Made by a program: the position numbers and the translations under genes
Shown: positions 14,830-51,472 of the stretch, piece by piece
Numbering within the stretch: position 1 is the stretch's first letter
How the letters are laid out: each line of letters begins with the position of its first letter
Notes under the pieces: generated by a model
Database searches by the model: none
What the model was told of the DNA's origin: nothing
What the model saw: only the letters and a program-made list of their open reading frames with translations
From: Nanobdellati archaeon
GTDB taxonomy: Archaea; EX4484-52; GLR71
Reading direction: 5' to 3'
Length of the DNA: 64,000 nt
NCBI GenBank assembly: GCA_019429005.1
Contig: JAHYJR010000001.1
Coordinates: 8,663 to 72,662, forward strand

Positions 14830-14936
14830 GCAGGGATCGCCAAGCTTGGTCAACGGCGATGGACTCAAAAAAAATAGATTAAATTGAGAGATCCATTCAC
14901 TTAGTGTGTACGAGGGTTCAAATCCCTTTCCCTGCA
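14830..14936 (+). tRNA. tRNA-Leu(CAA) with canonical 37/38 intron (14870-14890)
   Basis: GCAGGGA/TCCCTGC, long variable arm, BHB CTCA/TGAG. Confidence 0.9.
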
Positions 14937-27632: not shown

Positions 27633-29789
27633 ATGAAAAATACAATAAATAAAAATTATTTTTATGTTGTAAGCGCAATGCTGCTTGCAATATTTTTAAT
27701 TTCTGGAACAGTATCTGCTACAAATTATGCGGCAGATTTCACATTAGATGTGAATGCTTTAAGTTTATGTCCAACAGGATCATCTCAAGTAACAGGAATT
27801 ATTAAAAATCTTGGAACTGATGATGATACTTATACAATAACAAGTTCAAGCAACTGGATTATTATTGCACCAGATAAGCCAACAATAACAGCAGGAGCTA
27901 GGGAAAATATATATATGTATCTAAATCCGAAAATTGATGCAAACCCGGGCATATATACAATTACAATAAAAGTTCAACCAAAATCAGATATTAGTAGAAC
28001 ATACACACAAGAAATAACATTAACAGTTATGAACTGCCATGGAGTTTCTATAACACCAAAAACATTTGAATACGAAGGTTGTGTCGGTGAAGACATAACA
28101 CCAACATTTGAAATCACAAATACTGGTAAATCTGAAGAATCATTCATATTATGTACCGATAATAAAATTTGTTCTAACACAATCACAATAGATTCTGGTA
28201 AAACAAAAGACATGACACTTACAATACCATTAACTTCAAATTTTGAAGTTTTAGATACAACAGTACAATCAATAACTTCATATGCAAAAGATTCTGCAAA
28301 GATACAACTTGAAGCTACAGCTGTATGTTATAGTGTTGCTGTATTAACAACACCTTTAGAAAAAACAGTATGTAAAGGCGATGTTGCACAATTTGATATA
28401 ATAATCAAAAACATAGGTGGTAAAGAAGATTCATTCTTAATATCCCGCGATATCTACAGTACAATAGATAATGATAAACTATTTATCCTTTCAAAAGATA
28501 CCGCAAAAACACAAATATCAATACCAACAACAAATATGGATTTTGGAAAACATGAATTCGTTATTACATCAGAATCACAATCCAGCATAGACACATCAAA
28601 ATCAATAATAAATGTAGAAAATTGTTATACATCTGATGTTACAATTGAACCAACATCTGATGAAGTATGTCCTGGACGACCTTCAAGTTATATAATAAAT
28701 ATTGAAAATACTGGAAAACGAACAGACACATATAAAATTAACACAGAATATGGTGAATTATCAAATAATCAAGTAAAACTAGAGGTAAACGATAATTTAA
28801 ACACAATCTTAGTAGTAAATTCTGAAAAAACTGAAATTGGAACAAAAAACATAACAGTAGACATTATTTCAGAAAACACAGGAATAAAAACAAAAATAGT
28901 AACACAGAAACTAAAAGATTTAGATGAATGTTATGGTTTTAATGTTATACCAGAAACTCAAGTCCATACAATAAATGAATATAAGGGTGTATTATTTACA
29001 ATAGATGTAAAAAACACAGGGTTATACCCAATTAATGTTCAAGCAACAGCAACAAAAGGTCATGATTTAATAAAGATTGATCCAATAGAAAGTCAAACAA
29101 TAAGTATGGATGAGAACGGAATTGTATATATCTACATGAATGCTGAATATGGTACTGAAGATGGCACATATACAACAACAATTACATTAGTTAATGAATA
29201 TGGCATAAAGAAAGAAGCTGAATTAAGTCTTGTACTTAATACAAATAGTATTACAGGAAATACAATTGCAACAAAAGATACAAAAACGTCTACAAATACA
29301 AAAGACACTTCAGCAAAAACAGACATATCAGATACTAATAATGATTCGCCAGGAAAAATAAATTATTCAAACATTATAACTGCACTCTTAATCGGCATTA
29401 TTATAATACTTGTGATAATCTTTGGTCCTGACCTTCTAAAAGATGAAGAAGACGAAAAAGATAAAAAAACAAAAAAAAATGAAGATACAAAAGAAAAACC
29501 AATTGAAGTTAAAAAAGAAAAACCAATTGAAGTTAAAAAAGAAAAACCAAAAAGTAATAACACTGAAAAAGAGACTGTAAAAGAAAAAACAGTTACCACA
29601 AAAACAGTAACAGTAACAAAAGAAGCCCCTAAGAAAAAAGAACAAATTAAAAAGAAAAAAACTAAAAAACCCGAAAATAAAAATAAAGTTATAACTAAAA
29701 CAGAAGTTGTAACTAAAGAAACAAAGGTAGAACCACCAAAAAAACCTTCTATAGATAAGGATATTCAAGATATCCTTGATAACATATAA
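27633..29789 (+). CDS. Cell-surface protein with ~5 tandem Ig-like (NEW3/CARDB-like) domains, TM anchor and Lys/Glu-rich tail
   Basis: Repeating C...NxG..D.Y/F...C units; TM near residue 590. Confidence 0.75.
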   Translation: MKNTINKNYFYVVSAMLLAIFLISGTVSATNYAADFTLDVNALSLCPTGSSQVTGIIKNLGTDDDTYTITSSSNWIIIAPDKPTITAGARENIYMYLNPKIDANPGIYTITIKVQPKSDISRTYTQEITLTVMNCHGVSITPKTFEYEGCVGEDITPTFEITNTGKSEESFILCTDNKICSNTITIDSGKTKDMTLTIPLTSNFEVLDTTVQSITSYAKDSAKIQLEATAVCYSVAVLTTPLEKTVCKGDVAQFDIIIKNIGGKEDSFLISRDIYSTIDNDKLFILSKDTAKTQISIPTTNMDFGKHEFVITSESQSSIDTSKSIINVENCYTSDVTIEPTSDEVCPGRPSSYIINIENTGKRTDTYKINTEYGELSNNQVKLEVNDNLNTILVVNSEKTEIGTKNITVDIISENTGIKTKIVTQKLKDLDECYGFNVIPETQVHTINEYKGVLFTIDVKNTGLYPINVQATATKGHDLIKIDPIESQTISMDENGIVYIYMNAEYGTEDGTYTTTITLVNEYGIKKEAELSLVLNTNSITGNTIATKDTKTSTNTKDTSAKTDISDTNNDSPGKINYSNIITALLIGIIIILVIIFGPDLLKDEEDEKDKKTKKNEDTKEKPIEVKKEKPIEVKKEKPKSNNTEKETVKEKTVTTKTVTVTKEAPKKKEQIKKKKTKKPENKNKVITKTEVVTKETKVEPPKKPSIDKDIQDILDNI

Positions 29790-47363: not shown

Positions 47364-49100
47364 TCAACTATCAAAATAACATTTGGCCGTATCTAATTTT
47401 TTAAGATGCCTCGATTTTATATTTTTTGCTTGATTAAAAAGACCCTCTTTTGAAGCAAATATTTCATCAATATGTTCATTTACTTTTTCTTTACCAAGGA
47501 ATTTAGGAATTATAACATAATCTGCACCCAACTCATACAATTTAAGTGAATCCTCAATTGTTATTGCCGTAAGAAAAACAACCGTTTCTTTAGATTTGGA
47601 TTTAACTGCAACCAAAATAAATTTATTGTCTTCAAAATATGGTGTTGTTGAAACTACAAATTTTGCAGAATCAAAATTAAGTTTTTCAATAACTTCTTTA
47701 TTCCGAACATCGCCATATAAAACATACATTTTGTGGTTTTTAAGAGTTTCATGATTTTCTTTTGAAAGATGTTGTACTATCTCAGGATTATAATCTAGAA
47801 CAATTATGTCCTTACCCAAACTCTTAAGTTTCTCAAGTATACCGCTACCAAATAAATGACAACCAATAAGTACTGTATGTCCTGAAATGTCTTTAGACTC
47901 TACGATGTCATTTGTTTTGATTTTAAAAAAATTATCAAAATAATCTGAAATCCCTATCTTTGATAATAAATCAAAAAGAAAATTTCCATAACGTATCATA
48001 TATGCACTTACAGAAATTGTGACAATTGCAACTATTGCTGTTATTGAAAAAAGTGTACTAGGTATAAGTCCTTGAACAACAGCAATCCCTGCAAGAATTA
48101 ATGAAAACTCACTAATCTGGCTCAAACTTACAGAAGTTATAAAAGCAGTCCTGAAACTATATCCAAATTTCATTGCAATTATAAAAATAATCAACGGTTT
48201 TACTATAAGTATAAACAATATAAGAGCTACAATTGGCCAAAACAAACCCATAATACCAGATGGCACAATTTGCATCCCAAGAGATACAAAGAAAAGTACA
48301 GCAAAGAAATCTCTCAAAGAAGACATTTTGCTTATAATCTCAAGGTCATAAGGGTATGCTGCAAGACTTAAACCACCAATAAATGCACCAATTGCCATTG
48401 GAAAACCAATCATCTCTGAAAGACCTATAAAAAAGAAACATGAAGATAATGCTGTTAAAAACAAAAGTTCTGTTGATTTATTTGCATAAGAAAATACTTT
48501 TGGAAAAATATGAAATTTAAAAAACAATGCAAGAAGAAGAAGTCCAAACCCATAAATAAAAGTATAAACAAATTGAAAAGAATTTGTTGAATTAAACCCT
48601 AATATTAAAGATGTGCCCAATATTGCAAAAATATCCTGAATCAATAATATACCTATCATTATTCGACTTTCAAGAGTTTCAAGCAACCTCATATCACTTA
48701 GAAGTTTAACTACAACCATTGTACTACTTAAAGACAGAATCATACCCAAAACAATAGATTCAATAATTGTAAACCCTATAAACTGTGAAAAGAAATAAGC
48801 AATAACAAAAGTTAAAATTACCTGAAGGGACCCACCATAAATCACAAAAGAACCTACATTCTTAAGTTTTTTAATATCAATTTCCATACCTACAATAAAA
48901 AGAAGAAATATAACACCCAGTTCACTCAAAACGGAAATAATATCCCCACTAGTTATAATCCCAAGACCTATTGGTCCAAGAAAAACTCCAGCAAGCATAT
49001 ATACAGGTATTGAAGGTTGTTTTAAAAAACGTGCAATAAAAGCAAAAAAAGTTGCAAAAATTATTATAACACCAATATCAAAAAGTAAAGCTCCTGCCAT
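47364..49100 (-). CDS. CPA2/Kef-type cation:proton antiporter with TrkA-N domain
   Basis: LSSTMVV, ILLIQD, LRDFF..LFF, SQISEFS, GADYVI. Confidence 0.92.
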   Translation of the reverse strand: MAGALLFDIGVIIIFATFFAFIARFLKQPSIPVYMLAGVFLGPIGLGIITSGDIISVLSELGVIFLLFIVGMEIDIKKLKNVGSFVIYGGSLQVILTFVIAYFFSQFIGFTIIESIVLGMILSLSSTMVVVKLLSDMRLLETLESRIMIGILLIQDIFAILGTSLILGFNSTNSFQFVYTFIYGFGLLLLALFFKFHIFPKVFSYANKSTELLFLTALSSCFFFIGLSEMIGFPMAIGAFIGGLSLAAYPYDLEIISKMSSLRDFFAVLFFVSLGMQIVPSGIMGLFWPIVALILFILIVKPLIIFIIAMKFGYSFRTAFITSVSLSQISEFSLILAGIAVVQGLIPSTLFSITAIVAIVTISVSAYMIRYGNFLFDLLSKIGISDYFDNFFKIKTNDIVESKDISGHTVLIGCHLFGSGILEKLKSLGKDIIVLDYNPEIVQHLSKENHETLKNHKMYVLYGDVRNKEVIEKLNFDSAKFVVSTTPYFEDNKFILVAVKSKSKETVVFLTAITIEDSLKLYELGADYVIIPKFLGKEKVNEHIDEIFASKEGLFNQAKNIKSRHLKKLDTAKCYFDS

Positions 49101-49204
49101 AATAACACATCAAAAATTAAAAATACAAATATACTATTTAACTATACTTTTTATTTAACTAAATTAATTTTGTGAGATTCTATTTATATCAATTTCTGTA
49201 AATT

Positions 49205-49320
49205 TTAAAAAAGATAAAGAGGTGAGAATATACACTTTTTTGATCATATGCATAAACATCACAAAAAAGTGCTTTGGTGGTTGAATGCCCAACTATTTTG
49301 GTGGTTAAAAAATAGTGTAA
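49205..49320 (-). ncRNA. Candidate sRNA with anti-Shine-Dalgarno motifs
   Basis: Upstream BRE/TATA, two stems, AACCACCAAA x2, CTCACCTC, T-rich end. Confidence 0.4.
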
Positions 49321-49338
49321 TAAATATATTGTTTATTC

Positions 49339-49358
49339 TATTTATAATGTTTTCGGTT
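49339..49358 (-). promoter_or_regulatory. Archaeal BRE+TATA promoter (AACCGAAAACATTATAAATA)
   Basis: Near-consensus BRE followed by TTATAAATA. Confidence 0.6.
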
Positions 49359-49549
49359 TTATCAACAGTAAACTATTTAAACACCAACCACTCAAATTGA
49401 AAATCAATATACCAAAACAAAATCAATTAAATAAAAATTAAAATAATAACACATAAAAATTCATAAAATTATAAAATTTATAATATAAATAAAAAGAAAC
49501 ATAATCATTCTTTTAGTATTAAAAAAATATGTAATTTATAATCAATTAG

Positions 49550-51472
49550 GTGTATACTTTGCTTGAAATAAAATATAGAGATGCTGCTGGAAGGGTCTGT
49601 GATTGGACTTTTGATAAATACAAAATAACAACACCAAATATAGCAATAGTTATAAACCCAAACAAAATGATAATACCTGCAAAAGAACTTAAAGAAAAAT
49701 TCGGTGTTGAAATTATAATAACAAATGCATATATCATAAAAAAATCTAAACATGCTAACGAAATTGAAAAAATGGGTATACATAAATTCTTAGACTGGGA
49801 TGGTCCAATATACACAGATAGTGGAACATTTCAAATGTATTCAAAGGGCAAAGTTGATATCACACCAGATGAAACAATAGAATATCAAAAAAAAATAGGG
49901 TCTAATATAATAACACCTCTGGATTTATTTACACTTCCTGAAGACAAAGAAGATATAGTCAAATCAAAACTTACTGAAACAATAGAGCGAATGAAAATTG
50001 CAAAAACCAAAATAACAGATAGTCTTTTTGTAGGACCAATCCAGGGTGGAGCCTATATGGATTTGCGAATCCTAGCAGCCCAAGAAACAAACAAAATAAA
50101 ACCGGACATATTTGCAATTGGTGGAATTGTACCACTGATGGAACAATATAGATACCGCGACCTTGTAAACACAATAATTAATGTAAGAGAAAACCTATCG
50201 CTTGACAGACCATTACATGCTTTTGGTGCGGGACATCCAATGATGTTTTCACTTCTTGCAGCGATTGGTATTGATCTTTTTGATTCTGCTGCATATGCTC
50301 TATATGCCAAAGGCGGAAGATATATGATGCCAGACGGTACTCGTAAATTAGCAGAAATGGAAGAACTCCCTTGCACATGTCCAATCTGTGCAACTACAAA
50401 ACTTAAAGATTTCACATTAGGAGATCTTACAAGACATAACCTTTATGTAACAATGGCTGAAATACGCGCAATCAGACAAGCTATGTTTGAAGGTCGACTT
50501 TTGGAATTTGCAGAACAGAGAGCAAGATCACACCCACATCTTCTCGATGGCTTTAAAGAAGCACTTAAATATAAAGAATATCTTGAAAAATTTGAACCTA
50601 TAACTAAAAAAAGCGCATTCTTTGTGACGGGTCCAGAAAGCCTAGAAAAACCATCCGTATACAGATACAAAAAACGTATCAAAGAACGTTATGTTGCACC
50701 TAAACGAAAAAATGGTATAATTATAAACACATTCAAAAAAAATATAATATCTACAACAGATACACATTTTGTACTTATTAAATCGCCATTTGGTGTTGTT
50801 CCCGCAGAACTGACAAATCTTTATCCAGCAGGCCAAACAGTTGCACTTAAAAATAATTATAAGATTATAGAAACTGCAAATAAAGAAAGTATCAAAGATT
50901 ATGTGAAATCAAATAAAGAGTCTTATTCAAAAATGACTATTATTGATAACAAATACGAAGAAGCTTGGAAAAAAGATGCGAAAGATGAAGAAAAAGATCA
51001 TTTTCTCGAAATACGAAGTGTTCTTATGTTCCAATATGGAAAGAAAGCAATAAATATATTCAAAAACATGGATCTCGAACACGAAATATCTCTTGAAATT
51101 TCAAAAAAAACAAAACGAATCAGACGCGTATTAAATAAAGATAAACTCCTTGGAACACTCAGAGCAAGCGATGGACTTTTTATTCCATCCATTTATTGTG
51201 CAGAATTAATCAAAAACTGTCTTGATTATCCAGATTATAGAGTTGTCATAACAGACGATGCCGTACCTTTTGTTAGAGATGGAAAAAGCGTTTTCTCAAA
51301 ATTTGTAAAAGCAGCAGATAAAAACATACGACCTTATGACGAAGTTTTTATTGTAGACTCCAAAGATAATCTAATTGCGACAGGAAAAACTCTGTTGAAC
51401 GGACAAGAACTACTTGATTTCAATCATGGACTTGGAGTAAAAACTAGAGAAAGTATTAAAGAACAAAAATAG
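49550..51472 (+). CDS. tgtA: Archaeosine tRNA-guanine(15) transglycosylase with PUA domain
   Basis: TDSGTFQ, QGG, HAFGAGHP, DLFDSAAY, CTCPIC, C-terminal PUA. Confidence 0.95.
   Translation: MYTLLEIKYRDAAGRVCDWTFDKYKITTPNIAIVINPNKMIIPAKELKEKFGVEIIITNAYIIKKSKHANEIEKMGIHKFLDWDGPIYTDSGTFQMYSKGKVDITPDETIEYQKKIGSNIITPLDLFTLPEDKEDIVKSKLTETIERMKIAKTKITDSLFVGPIQGGAYMDLRILAAQETNKIKPDIFAIGGIVPLMEQYRYRDLVNTIINVRENLSLDRPLHAFGAGHPMMFSLLAAIGIDLFDSAAYALYAKGGRYMMPDGTRKLAEMEELPCTCPICATTKLKDFTLGDLTRHNLYVTMAEIRAIRQAMFEGRLLEFAEQRARSHPHLLDGFKEALKYKEYLEKFEPITKKSAFFVTGPESLEKPSVYRYKKRIKERYVAPKRKNGIIINTFKKNIISTTDTHFVLIKSPFGVVPAELTNLYPAGQTVALKNNYKIIETANKESIKDYVKSNKESYSKMTIIDNKYEEAWKKDAKDEEKDHFLEIRSVLMFQYGKKAINIFKNMDLEHEISLEISKKTKRIRRVLNKDKLLGTLRASDGLFIPSIYCAELIKNCLDYPDYRVVITDDAVPFVRDGKSVFSKFVKAADKNIRPYDEVFIVDSKDNLIATGKTLLNGQELLDFNHGLGVKTRESIKEQK

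Follow-up and report, generated by a model that had tools for sequence, protein, structure and literature searches.

The spacer between a gene for a Kef-type cation/H+ antiporter (kef) and the divergently oriented arcTGT gene of this archaeon may encode a small RNA of a known regulatory type. We tentatively interpret a segment on its minus strand as a plausible, putative and lineage-specific sRNA of ~110 nt that would act on ribosome-binding sites (RBSs). The segment lies downstream from a promoter-like box, is predicted to fold into two hairpins, displays three C-rich stretches that resemble anti-Shine-Dalgarno (anti-SD) sequence, and ends in a run of six T residues. Its perfect complementarity to translation start regions also appears unusual among the intergenic segments of the genome. 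Other explanations are considered below together with the evidence on which they bear.

The genome is archaeal and comprises 1,078,986 bp in 15 contigs with a GC content of 29.7%. The window, by which we mean the whole 64,000-nt stretch of DNA that was analyzed, is part of one of these contigs (C11). Within it, kef occupies positions 47364..49100 on the minus strand (Na_H_Exchanger, 6e-60; TrkA_N, 2.9e-16), and arcTGT occupies 49559..51472 on the plus strand (TGT, 1.6e-69, with DUF5591, TGT_C2, and PUA domains). The arcTGT start is a TTG at 49559 that aligns with ATG in relatives. The two genes flank a divergent spacer of 458 nt that holds the candidate unit. Genome-wide counts were made on crude ORF-based gene calls (1,066 ORFs, 1,040 of them with assigned starts), according to which divergent spacers have a median length of 239 nt, a 75th percentile of 354 nt, and a 90th percentile of 491 nt. 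The kef-arcTGT spacer is therefore long, not extreme.

Promoter-like boxes on the minus strand

An earlier note on this DNA had proposed a BRE/TATA element on the minus strand at 49339-49358. This box, here called P1, was readily found: a BRE (CGAAAAC) followed by a TATA element (ATTATAAATA) spans 49339..49358, with CGAAAACATTATAAATA at 49355-49339. The suggestion that kef has a TATA-like box of its own near 49182-49190 was likewise borne out by a second box at 49190-49181, which forms part of a longer promoter-like element of kef (P2, AGAAATTGATATAAATAGAAT, 49177..49199, minus strand). P1 and P2 constitute a 23-nt direct repeat (D3) with 78% identity, and P2 lies 158 nt downstream.

Motif discovery by expectation maximization on 598 upstream regions yielded only a low-information A/T motif, and therefore explicit BRE+TATA composite patterns were counted instead. 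The pattern GAAA-N2-5-TWTAWAWA was counted over the 150 nt preceding each of 600 genes whose upstream side is free, and there it occurs 24 times in the sense and 8 times in the antisense orientation. The stricter composite that P1 matches, CGAAA-N1-5-TWTAWAWA, is found only 16 times on both strands of the genome (2 x 1.08 Mb), and 13 of these 16 sites are noncoding, though noncoding DNA makes up only ~10% of the genome. Eight of the 13 are situated 21-114 nt upstream of a called gene start on the same strand. The other five are farther off, at least 238 nt from the next called start, and P1 is among them at a distance of 238 nt from kef.

P1 also resembles the tRNA promoters of this genome, such as the GAAACATTTAAAAG of tRNA-Leu. 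When either P1 or P2 is read on the plus strand, the box fits neither composite pattern, and the oriented composite counts agree with the proposal that the promoter faces the minus strand. We thus predict, with moderate confidence, that P1 is a real minus-strand promoter. Archaeal transcripts usually begin at a purine ~25 nt downstream of the center of the TATA element. Such spacing would place the start for P1 at 49316..49318 on the minus strand, and hairpin 1 would then form the extreme 5' end of the RNA.

Predicted hairpins and a putative terminator

The unit had first been described as ~115 nt in length, with stems, C-rich copies, and a U-rich end, and all of these elements are present on the minus strand. 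Hairpin 1 (49292..49316) folds as an 8-bp stem with arms at 49316-49309 (ACUAUUUU) and 49299-49292 (AAAAUAGU), and its 9-nt loop (UUAACCACC) carries AACCACC just as had been claimed. Hairpin 2 (49232..49272), recovered both by folding and as an inverted repeat (I13), contains 10 Watson-Crick pairs and one G-U pair. Its reported 10-bp stem is perfect, formed by 49271-49262 with 49242-49233. The predicted minus-strand fold of the unit has an energy of -19.6 kcal/mol (z = -2.33), and 4 of 200 shuffled sequences fold as well; for the plus strand, z = -0.84. The spacers of this genome contain 353 ten-bp hairpin seeds in 139 kb, compared with a mean of 55 in 10 shuffles. Because spacer hairpins are so common genome-wide, the stems alone are unremarkable and carry little weight. 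Indeed, TATA-like boxes, T-tracts, and hairpins are each frequent in this 30% GC genome.

The U-rich end corresponds to a T6 tract at 49207..49212 on the minus strand, a putative archaeal terminator of the unit. Tracts of at least six T residues occur on the sense strand in 29% of 540 sixty-nt 3' flanks, where the control for at least six A residues gives 17%, and in 7.8% of 602 forty-five-nt 5' UTRs, where the same control gives 15%. These statistics fit oligo-T termination in this organism, make an oligo-T terminator plausible, and favor a stop at 49212-49207 directly before P2, with a likelihood ratio that is only about threefold.

The same elements could instead serve kef in cis. According to this explanation, P1 is an alternative upstream promoter of kef, positions 49318-49101 are a long 5' leader, and the hairpins (possibly including a protein-bound kink-turn) and the T6 tract form an attenuator or a processing or stability element, without any separate sRNA. 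In favor of this explanation, P1 and P2 share an orientation and are copies of each other, and all five of the distant noncoding promoters in the class of P1 stand at least 238 nt from the next called start. Moreover, the leader derived from P2 tolerates two T5 runs, so T-tracts need not terminate transcription fully. However, the full leader from P1 to kef has no excess structure and folds no better than shuffled sequences (z = 0.03), T6 tracts are depleted in 5' UTRs, and the Rfam search revealed no riboswitch or leader family. In 10 relatives of the same family, the regions upstream of the Kef orthologs (at most 50% identity) are short and unrelated, lack ACCACC, and offer no comparable leader. 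The kef start region is also not complementary to the C-rich motifs, ranking only 560 of 1,040. We consider a role as a kef leader unlikely.

Anti-SD-like motifs and the opposite strand

Three stretches of the candidate sRNA resemble anti-SD sequence. Motif 1 (AACCACCAAA, 49306-49297, minus strand) lies in the loop and 3' arm of hairpin 1, where its mean probability of being unpaired is 0.72 and that of the AACCACC portion is at least 0.98. The second C-rich copy that had been noticed is motif 2, another AACCACCAAA at 49282-49273 in the linker between the hairpins (mean probability 0.71). Motif 3 (CUCACCUC, 49219..49226, minus strand) has a probability of 1.0, and its proposed likeness to the 16S anti-SD tail holds up well, since it and the 3' end of the 16S rRNA of this genome (...GGATCACCTCCT) have UCACCUC in common. 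The anti-SD-like motifs all fall within predicted single-stranded stretches. The two local copies of AACCACCAAA belong to a 13-nt direct repeat (D5) with 92% identity and a separation of 24 nt. There are five copies of AACCACCAAA in the window (0.40 expected; none of 100 shuffles reaches five) and 12 in the whole genome. SD usage in this organism centers on GTGAT/GGTG, with GGTG present in 246 of 1,040 upstream regions. The variant GGTGGT plays a minor part (17 of 1,040), and TTTGGTGGTT only rarely precedes a called start (4 of 1,040).

A plus-strand reading, which is absent from the earlier note, turns the motifs into GAGGTGAG, TTTGGTGGTT, and TTTGGTGGTT, or three SD sequences. If plus were the functional strand, these could be genuine SD sites belonging either to a long arcTGT leader or to small ORFs. 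A 7-codon ORF (MPNYFGG; 49285..49308, plus strand) has the GGTGGT of the middle site 3 nt upstream of its ATG. A 50-codon ORF (49248..49400, plus strand), whose frame is open from 49218, reads LWWL/FWWL across the repeats, and its hydrophobic stretch overlaps with P1. By position, this longer ORF would correspond to a conserved gene for a 29-30-aa membrane protein that precedes arcTGT in a sister genus (g3). We regard this overall interpretation as quite improbable.

Several features speak for the plus-strand proposal. The spacing in GGTGGT-NNN-ATG at 49300/49285 is that of real TTTGGTGGTT-NNN-ATG starts, and GAGGTGAG matches the SD consensus over 7 nt. An open frame of 61 codons is uncommon at 30% GC, with ~0.5 expected in the spacer by our own estimate. 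In the sister genus, all six of the arcTGT loci examined carry a conserved small transmembrane ORF 130-238 nt upstream on the same strand, and the ORF described here ends 158 nt upstream. Yet codon usage gives no coding signal for the 50-codon ORF: its score of -5.5 is close to the median of -4.9 among 2,878 short ORFs, most of which are spurious. No homolog of it was found in the order, in a word index of 5.8 billion proteins, or among 1.84 billion representatives (E<=0.001). A profile of the g3 small protein has no match in this genome at E<=10, and it scores the 50-codon ORF at -1.1 bits (rank 6,648 of 19,022 ORFs). No SD sequence stands at a functional distance from the ATG at 49248, the hydrophobic stretch is nothing more than the P1 TATA box read on its T-rich complementary strand, and the plus strand has no box that fits the promoter class. 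A lenient blastn comparison of the spacer with the arcTGT upstream regions of g3 returned low-complexity A/T alignments only.

The conserved ORF in g3 is an observation in its own right. It encodes a single-TM protein of 29-30 aa with the consensus MxDFKNKI..LS.LTVFVYGLVFISTIVA, and examples include L201:3579-3665 (-), L202:1205-1291 (+), and L205:1272-1361 (+). It was detected in six genomes at E<=5e-17, all of that genus, and nowhere else in the order. On the minus strand of the kef-arcTGT spacer, a 42-codon ORF at 49164-49292 was rejected as a coding candidate: it has no SD sequence and spans P2.

Complementarity to translation start regions

The earlier note had pointed to complementarity to three RBSs, and this complementarity is present. 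Sites matching TTTGGTGGT(T) are located just upstream of the starts at 27633 (a 718-aa protein), 60231 (a PRC-barrel protein), and 62548 (a thioredoxin-like protein). When all 1,040 start regions were examined, 11 were found to contain a perfect complement of 9 nt or longer that includes four or more G/C, compared with a mean of 2.1 in 300 dinucleotide shuffles, only one of which reaches 11. For perfect complements of at least 10 nt, the count is six start regions versus 0.93 in the shuffles, and 2 of the 300 reach six. Natural sequences provide a second comparison. Among 8,950 intergenic windows of 114 nt (442 spacers, both strands), a score of 11 was reached by six, which derive from three regions including the candidate unit. 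Judged by their coordinates, the other two regions are antisense to a gene's own RBS. The RBS complementarity of the unit therefore seems unusual and among the highest of intergenic segments, with the qualification that this is a post hoc statistic: exactly this property had led to the choice of the site.

Duplex energies calculated for the whole RNA are dominated by A-U pairing and are uninformative. When matched against the 1,040 start regions, the RNA is predicted to form 381 duplexes at or below -12 kcal/mol, which does not set it apart from 22 shuffles (233-422; three of the 22 are higher). The neighboring genes are not preferred targets, since arcTGT ranks only 494 of 1,040 and kef still lower.

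The genes with the 13 best seed matches encode two unknown proteins (718 and 626 aa), a LeuA-like enzyme, Rrp4, PfkB, a DUF655 protein, the thioredoxin-like and PRC-barrel proteins, a wHTH protein, RpoP, and three further unknown proteins. The earlier note had envisioned a trans-acting sRNA that blocks one class of RBS, and had looked to a coherent target set as a check. The perfect complementarity to ribosome-binding regions is indeed unusual. The idea of one RBS class gains no support, in that the target set is small and functionally incoherent: the 13 seed-matched genes form no pathway, and TTTGGTGGTT precedes very few starts, as counted above.

Conservation and the possible origin of the spacer

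Searches for relatives of the unit, another check that had been suggested at the outset, gave negative results. With Rfam gathering thresholds, the window yields three tRNAs only and no family for the candidate. At E<=10, the region 49000-49650 produces one spurious match to SCARNA7 (11.9 bits) outside the unit. Elsewhere in the window, an Rfam tRNA match of 107 nt at 14830-14936 on the plus strand (40.7 bits), where ARAGORN makes no call, is probably an intron-containing tRNA gene.

No conserved counterpart was seen in 41 other genomes of the order, all of which are distant (Kef identity 33-50%), so this result is weak. The nearest of them has 50% identity in Kef and 55% in arcTGT. A blastn search of the spacer against 40 relatives identified no homolog, only matches to its AT-rich part or to unrelated coding DNA. 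A single-sequence covariance model of the unit, run on 42 genomes of the order, found no credible match; the top match outside this genome (E = 0.038 per genome) does not contain the motifs. When metagenomes were scanned with Kef, only two relatives emerged, at 39% and 30% identity, and no close strain suitable for covariation analysis. A scan of genome contigs for the tandem arrangement AACCACCAAA-N6-30-AACCACCAAA gave at least 124 matches. Of the 80 matches listed, 78 are bacterial and two are from Bathyarchaeota, and none of those listed comes from the order of this archaeon. This outcome is at chance level.

Local duplication appears to have shaped the spacer. On its arcTGT side, at 49428-49542 (plus strand), are tandem A-rich segments of 57 nt (D1) with 70% identity, each ending in AATTTATAAT, and because of these the arcTGT promoter region also looks locally duplicated. 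Across P1, positions 49443-49467 are a 25-nt copy (D2, 84%) of the kef start region at 49099-49123, which includes the RBS and the first base of the start codon. This copy is a further sign that the spacer may have been built through local duplications.

In a further explanation, the spacer grew by duplication of promoter segments and has neither RNA nor coding function. Its repeats and palindromes would then be debris, or else DNA sites at which a transcription factor acts on the divergent kef and arcTGT promoters. Tandem promoter-like copies do occur in both halves of the spacer (D1, 57 nt, 70%; D3, 23 nt, 78%; D2, 25 nt, 84%), and a related GTGGTTGGTG is located beyond P1 at 49393-49384. 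Hairpin 1 is an 8+9+8 palindrome, the size of an operator. The element is also not conserved in the relatives searched, and the spacer length is only near the 75th-90th percentile for divergent spacers. Despite these points, just one further noncoding locus in the genome has the paired TGGTGG motif, leaving no visible regulon of such sites. In addition, an oriented promoter class, exposed motifs, and a T-tract together exceed what duplication alone predicts. We judge this explanation doubtful, though slightly more probable than a kef leader.

Proposed action and known systems

Returning to the sRNA interpretation, which has the most support of those considered here, we infer transcription, transcript ends, and all function from the motifs, stems, promoter class, T-tract, and complementarity statistics described above. 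P1 would be a second, upstream promoter that arose as a diverged copy of the kef promoter P2. It would fire on the minus strand at ~49316-49318 to give a noncoding transcript of ~110 nt that ends at T6 (49212-49207), immediately before P2. The RNA would form two local hairpins and leave three C-rich stretches single-stranded, namely the AACCACC of loop 1, the AACCACCAAA between the hairpins, and the CUCACCUC of the 3' tail. Its most likely activity would be base-pairing with the SD regions of mRNAs, which would reduce translation initiation. The SD variants predicted to pair best are GGUGGU and GAGGUG.

Precedents for this type of action exist in two domains of life. Bacterial sRNAs with C-rich loops that pair with SD sequences, such as RsaE/RoxS of Firmicutes, are widely conserved and control coherent metabolic regulons. 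Like these RNAs, the candidate would present several unpaired C-rich motifs in one short molecule, each able to pair with G-rich SD regions. The bacterial examples differ in belonging to another domain of life and share no homology with the candidate.

Among archaea, sRNA154 of Methanosarcina mazei has an anti-RBS sequence in its loop 2 that masks the RBS of glnA2, and sRNA41 is proposed to mask ribosome-binding sites inside polycistronic ACDS mRNAs (PMC5867862). As that account describes them, both are intergenic archaeal sRNAs with stem-loops (PMC5867862). The candidate resembles them in that both a loop and single-stranded linkers are predicted to expose anti-SD-like sequence. sRNA41 and sRNA154 are conserved within Methanosarcina and were demonstrated by experiment, whereas the candidate has no detectable relative in the genomes searched and is a predicted transcript. 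It also differs from both in carrying three motifs of two flavors, ACCACC and CACCUC, and in having seed-matched genes that form no pathway.

DPANN cells have genomes of ~1 Mb and few transcription factors, and therefore post-transcriptional control could be important to them. A search of the literature on small RNAs in DPANN archaea found no dedicated study among the matches listed, and the regulatory RNAs of this group are essentially uncharted. If transcribed, the unit would represent a compact anti-RBS sRNA from beyond the methanogens and haloarchaea, and it would illustrate how a duplicated promoter can give rise to a new sRNA gene. For now, it amounts to a reasonable hypothesis for annotating a single genome and does not constitute a discovery.

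Other RNA classes and a possible kink-turn

Several other identities for the unit were tried and rejected by inspection. Box C/D sRNAs have a C box (RUGAUGA), a D box (CUGA), guides of 10-12 nt, and additional C'/D' boxes. The candidate offers only GUGAUGU and AUGAUCA inside one hairpin loop, with no CUGA and no guide spacing. It has neither the pocket nor the ACA box of an H/ACA sRNA. The PUA domain contacts the CCA end of tRNA, which raised the idea of a tRNA 3'-end (ACCA) mimic for the PUA domain of arcTGT; the motifs, however, do not follow an acceptor-like stem on its 3' side.

When drawn out, the tip of hairpin 2 resembles a C'/D' K-loop whose G-C pair has been swapped relative to the box consensus. 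By inspection, a kink-turn can be drawn from its apical 19 nt (49261-49243), with GUGA opposite UAU-GAUC. In this drawing, GA at 49260-49259 faces GA at 49245-49244, the bulge is UAU, and a U-U pair at 3b:3n is followed by C-G. The non-bulged strand reads G-U-G-A and continues into a 3-bp C-helix with the loop UUAU, and the bulged strand reads UAU, G-A, U, C. Stem-loops that bind L7Ae are characterized as having a 3-nt bulge, tandem G:A and A:G pairs, a short C-helix, and a terminal loop on either helix (PMC6298567). Compared with L7Ae-binding kink-turns, such as those of l7ae mRNA leaders and the C'/D' K-loops of box C/D sRNAs, the candidate has UAU in place of GAU as its bulge, and the closing pair of its C-helix is A-U.

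The genome does encode L7Ae, and inspection of the 5' leader of its l7ae gene revealed no obvious k-turn for comparison. The genome contains 78 instances of the bare NGA...GAN pattern on stems of 8 bp or more. Twenty-six of these occurrences are noncoding, including 14 in one tandem repeat and three in the rRNA region. Because the minimal pattern is so frequent, the kink-turn in hairpin 2 is a candidate only, a lead and not a finding. A tandem repeat with a 14-nt unit (AGTTTAAGTTTGAT) is found on the minus strand at both the end of contig C7 and the start of contig C9, and the two copies are probably one array that broke the assembly.

A more ambitious and very improbable extension of the sRNA interpretation would make use of this structure. 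The RNA would be a lineage-specific DPANN ribonucleoprotein sRNA, born by duplication of the kef promoter, whose kink-turn recruits L7Ae for stability. Its three 16S-tail-like copies would compete with the small ribosomal subunit for SD sites, and the complex would act as a general dial on SD-dependent initiation and not as a control for a single operon.

Other promoters of the same class

The four promoters of the CGAAA-TATA class, other than P1, that lie far from the next gene have no Rfam match. On the plus strand of contig C10, at ~47940-48040, a CGAAAAC+TATA promoter precedes a GC-richer hairpin (GGUGGGUGGA...UCCACUCAACC) and a C-rich/U-rich tail (CAACCACAUCUUUACUUCUUUAA). With no ORF on that strand, no Rfam match, and a folding z of -2.07 for 201 nt, this locus may be another small RNA unit.
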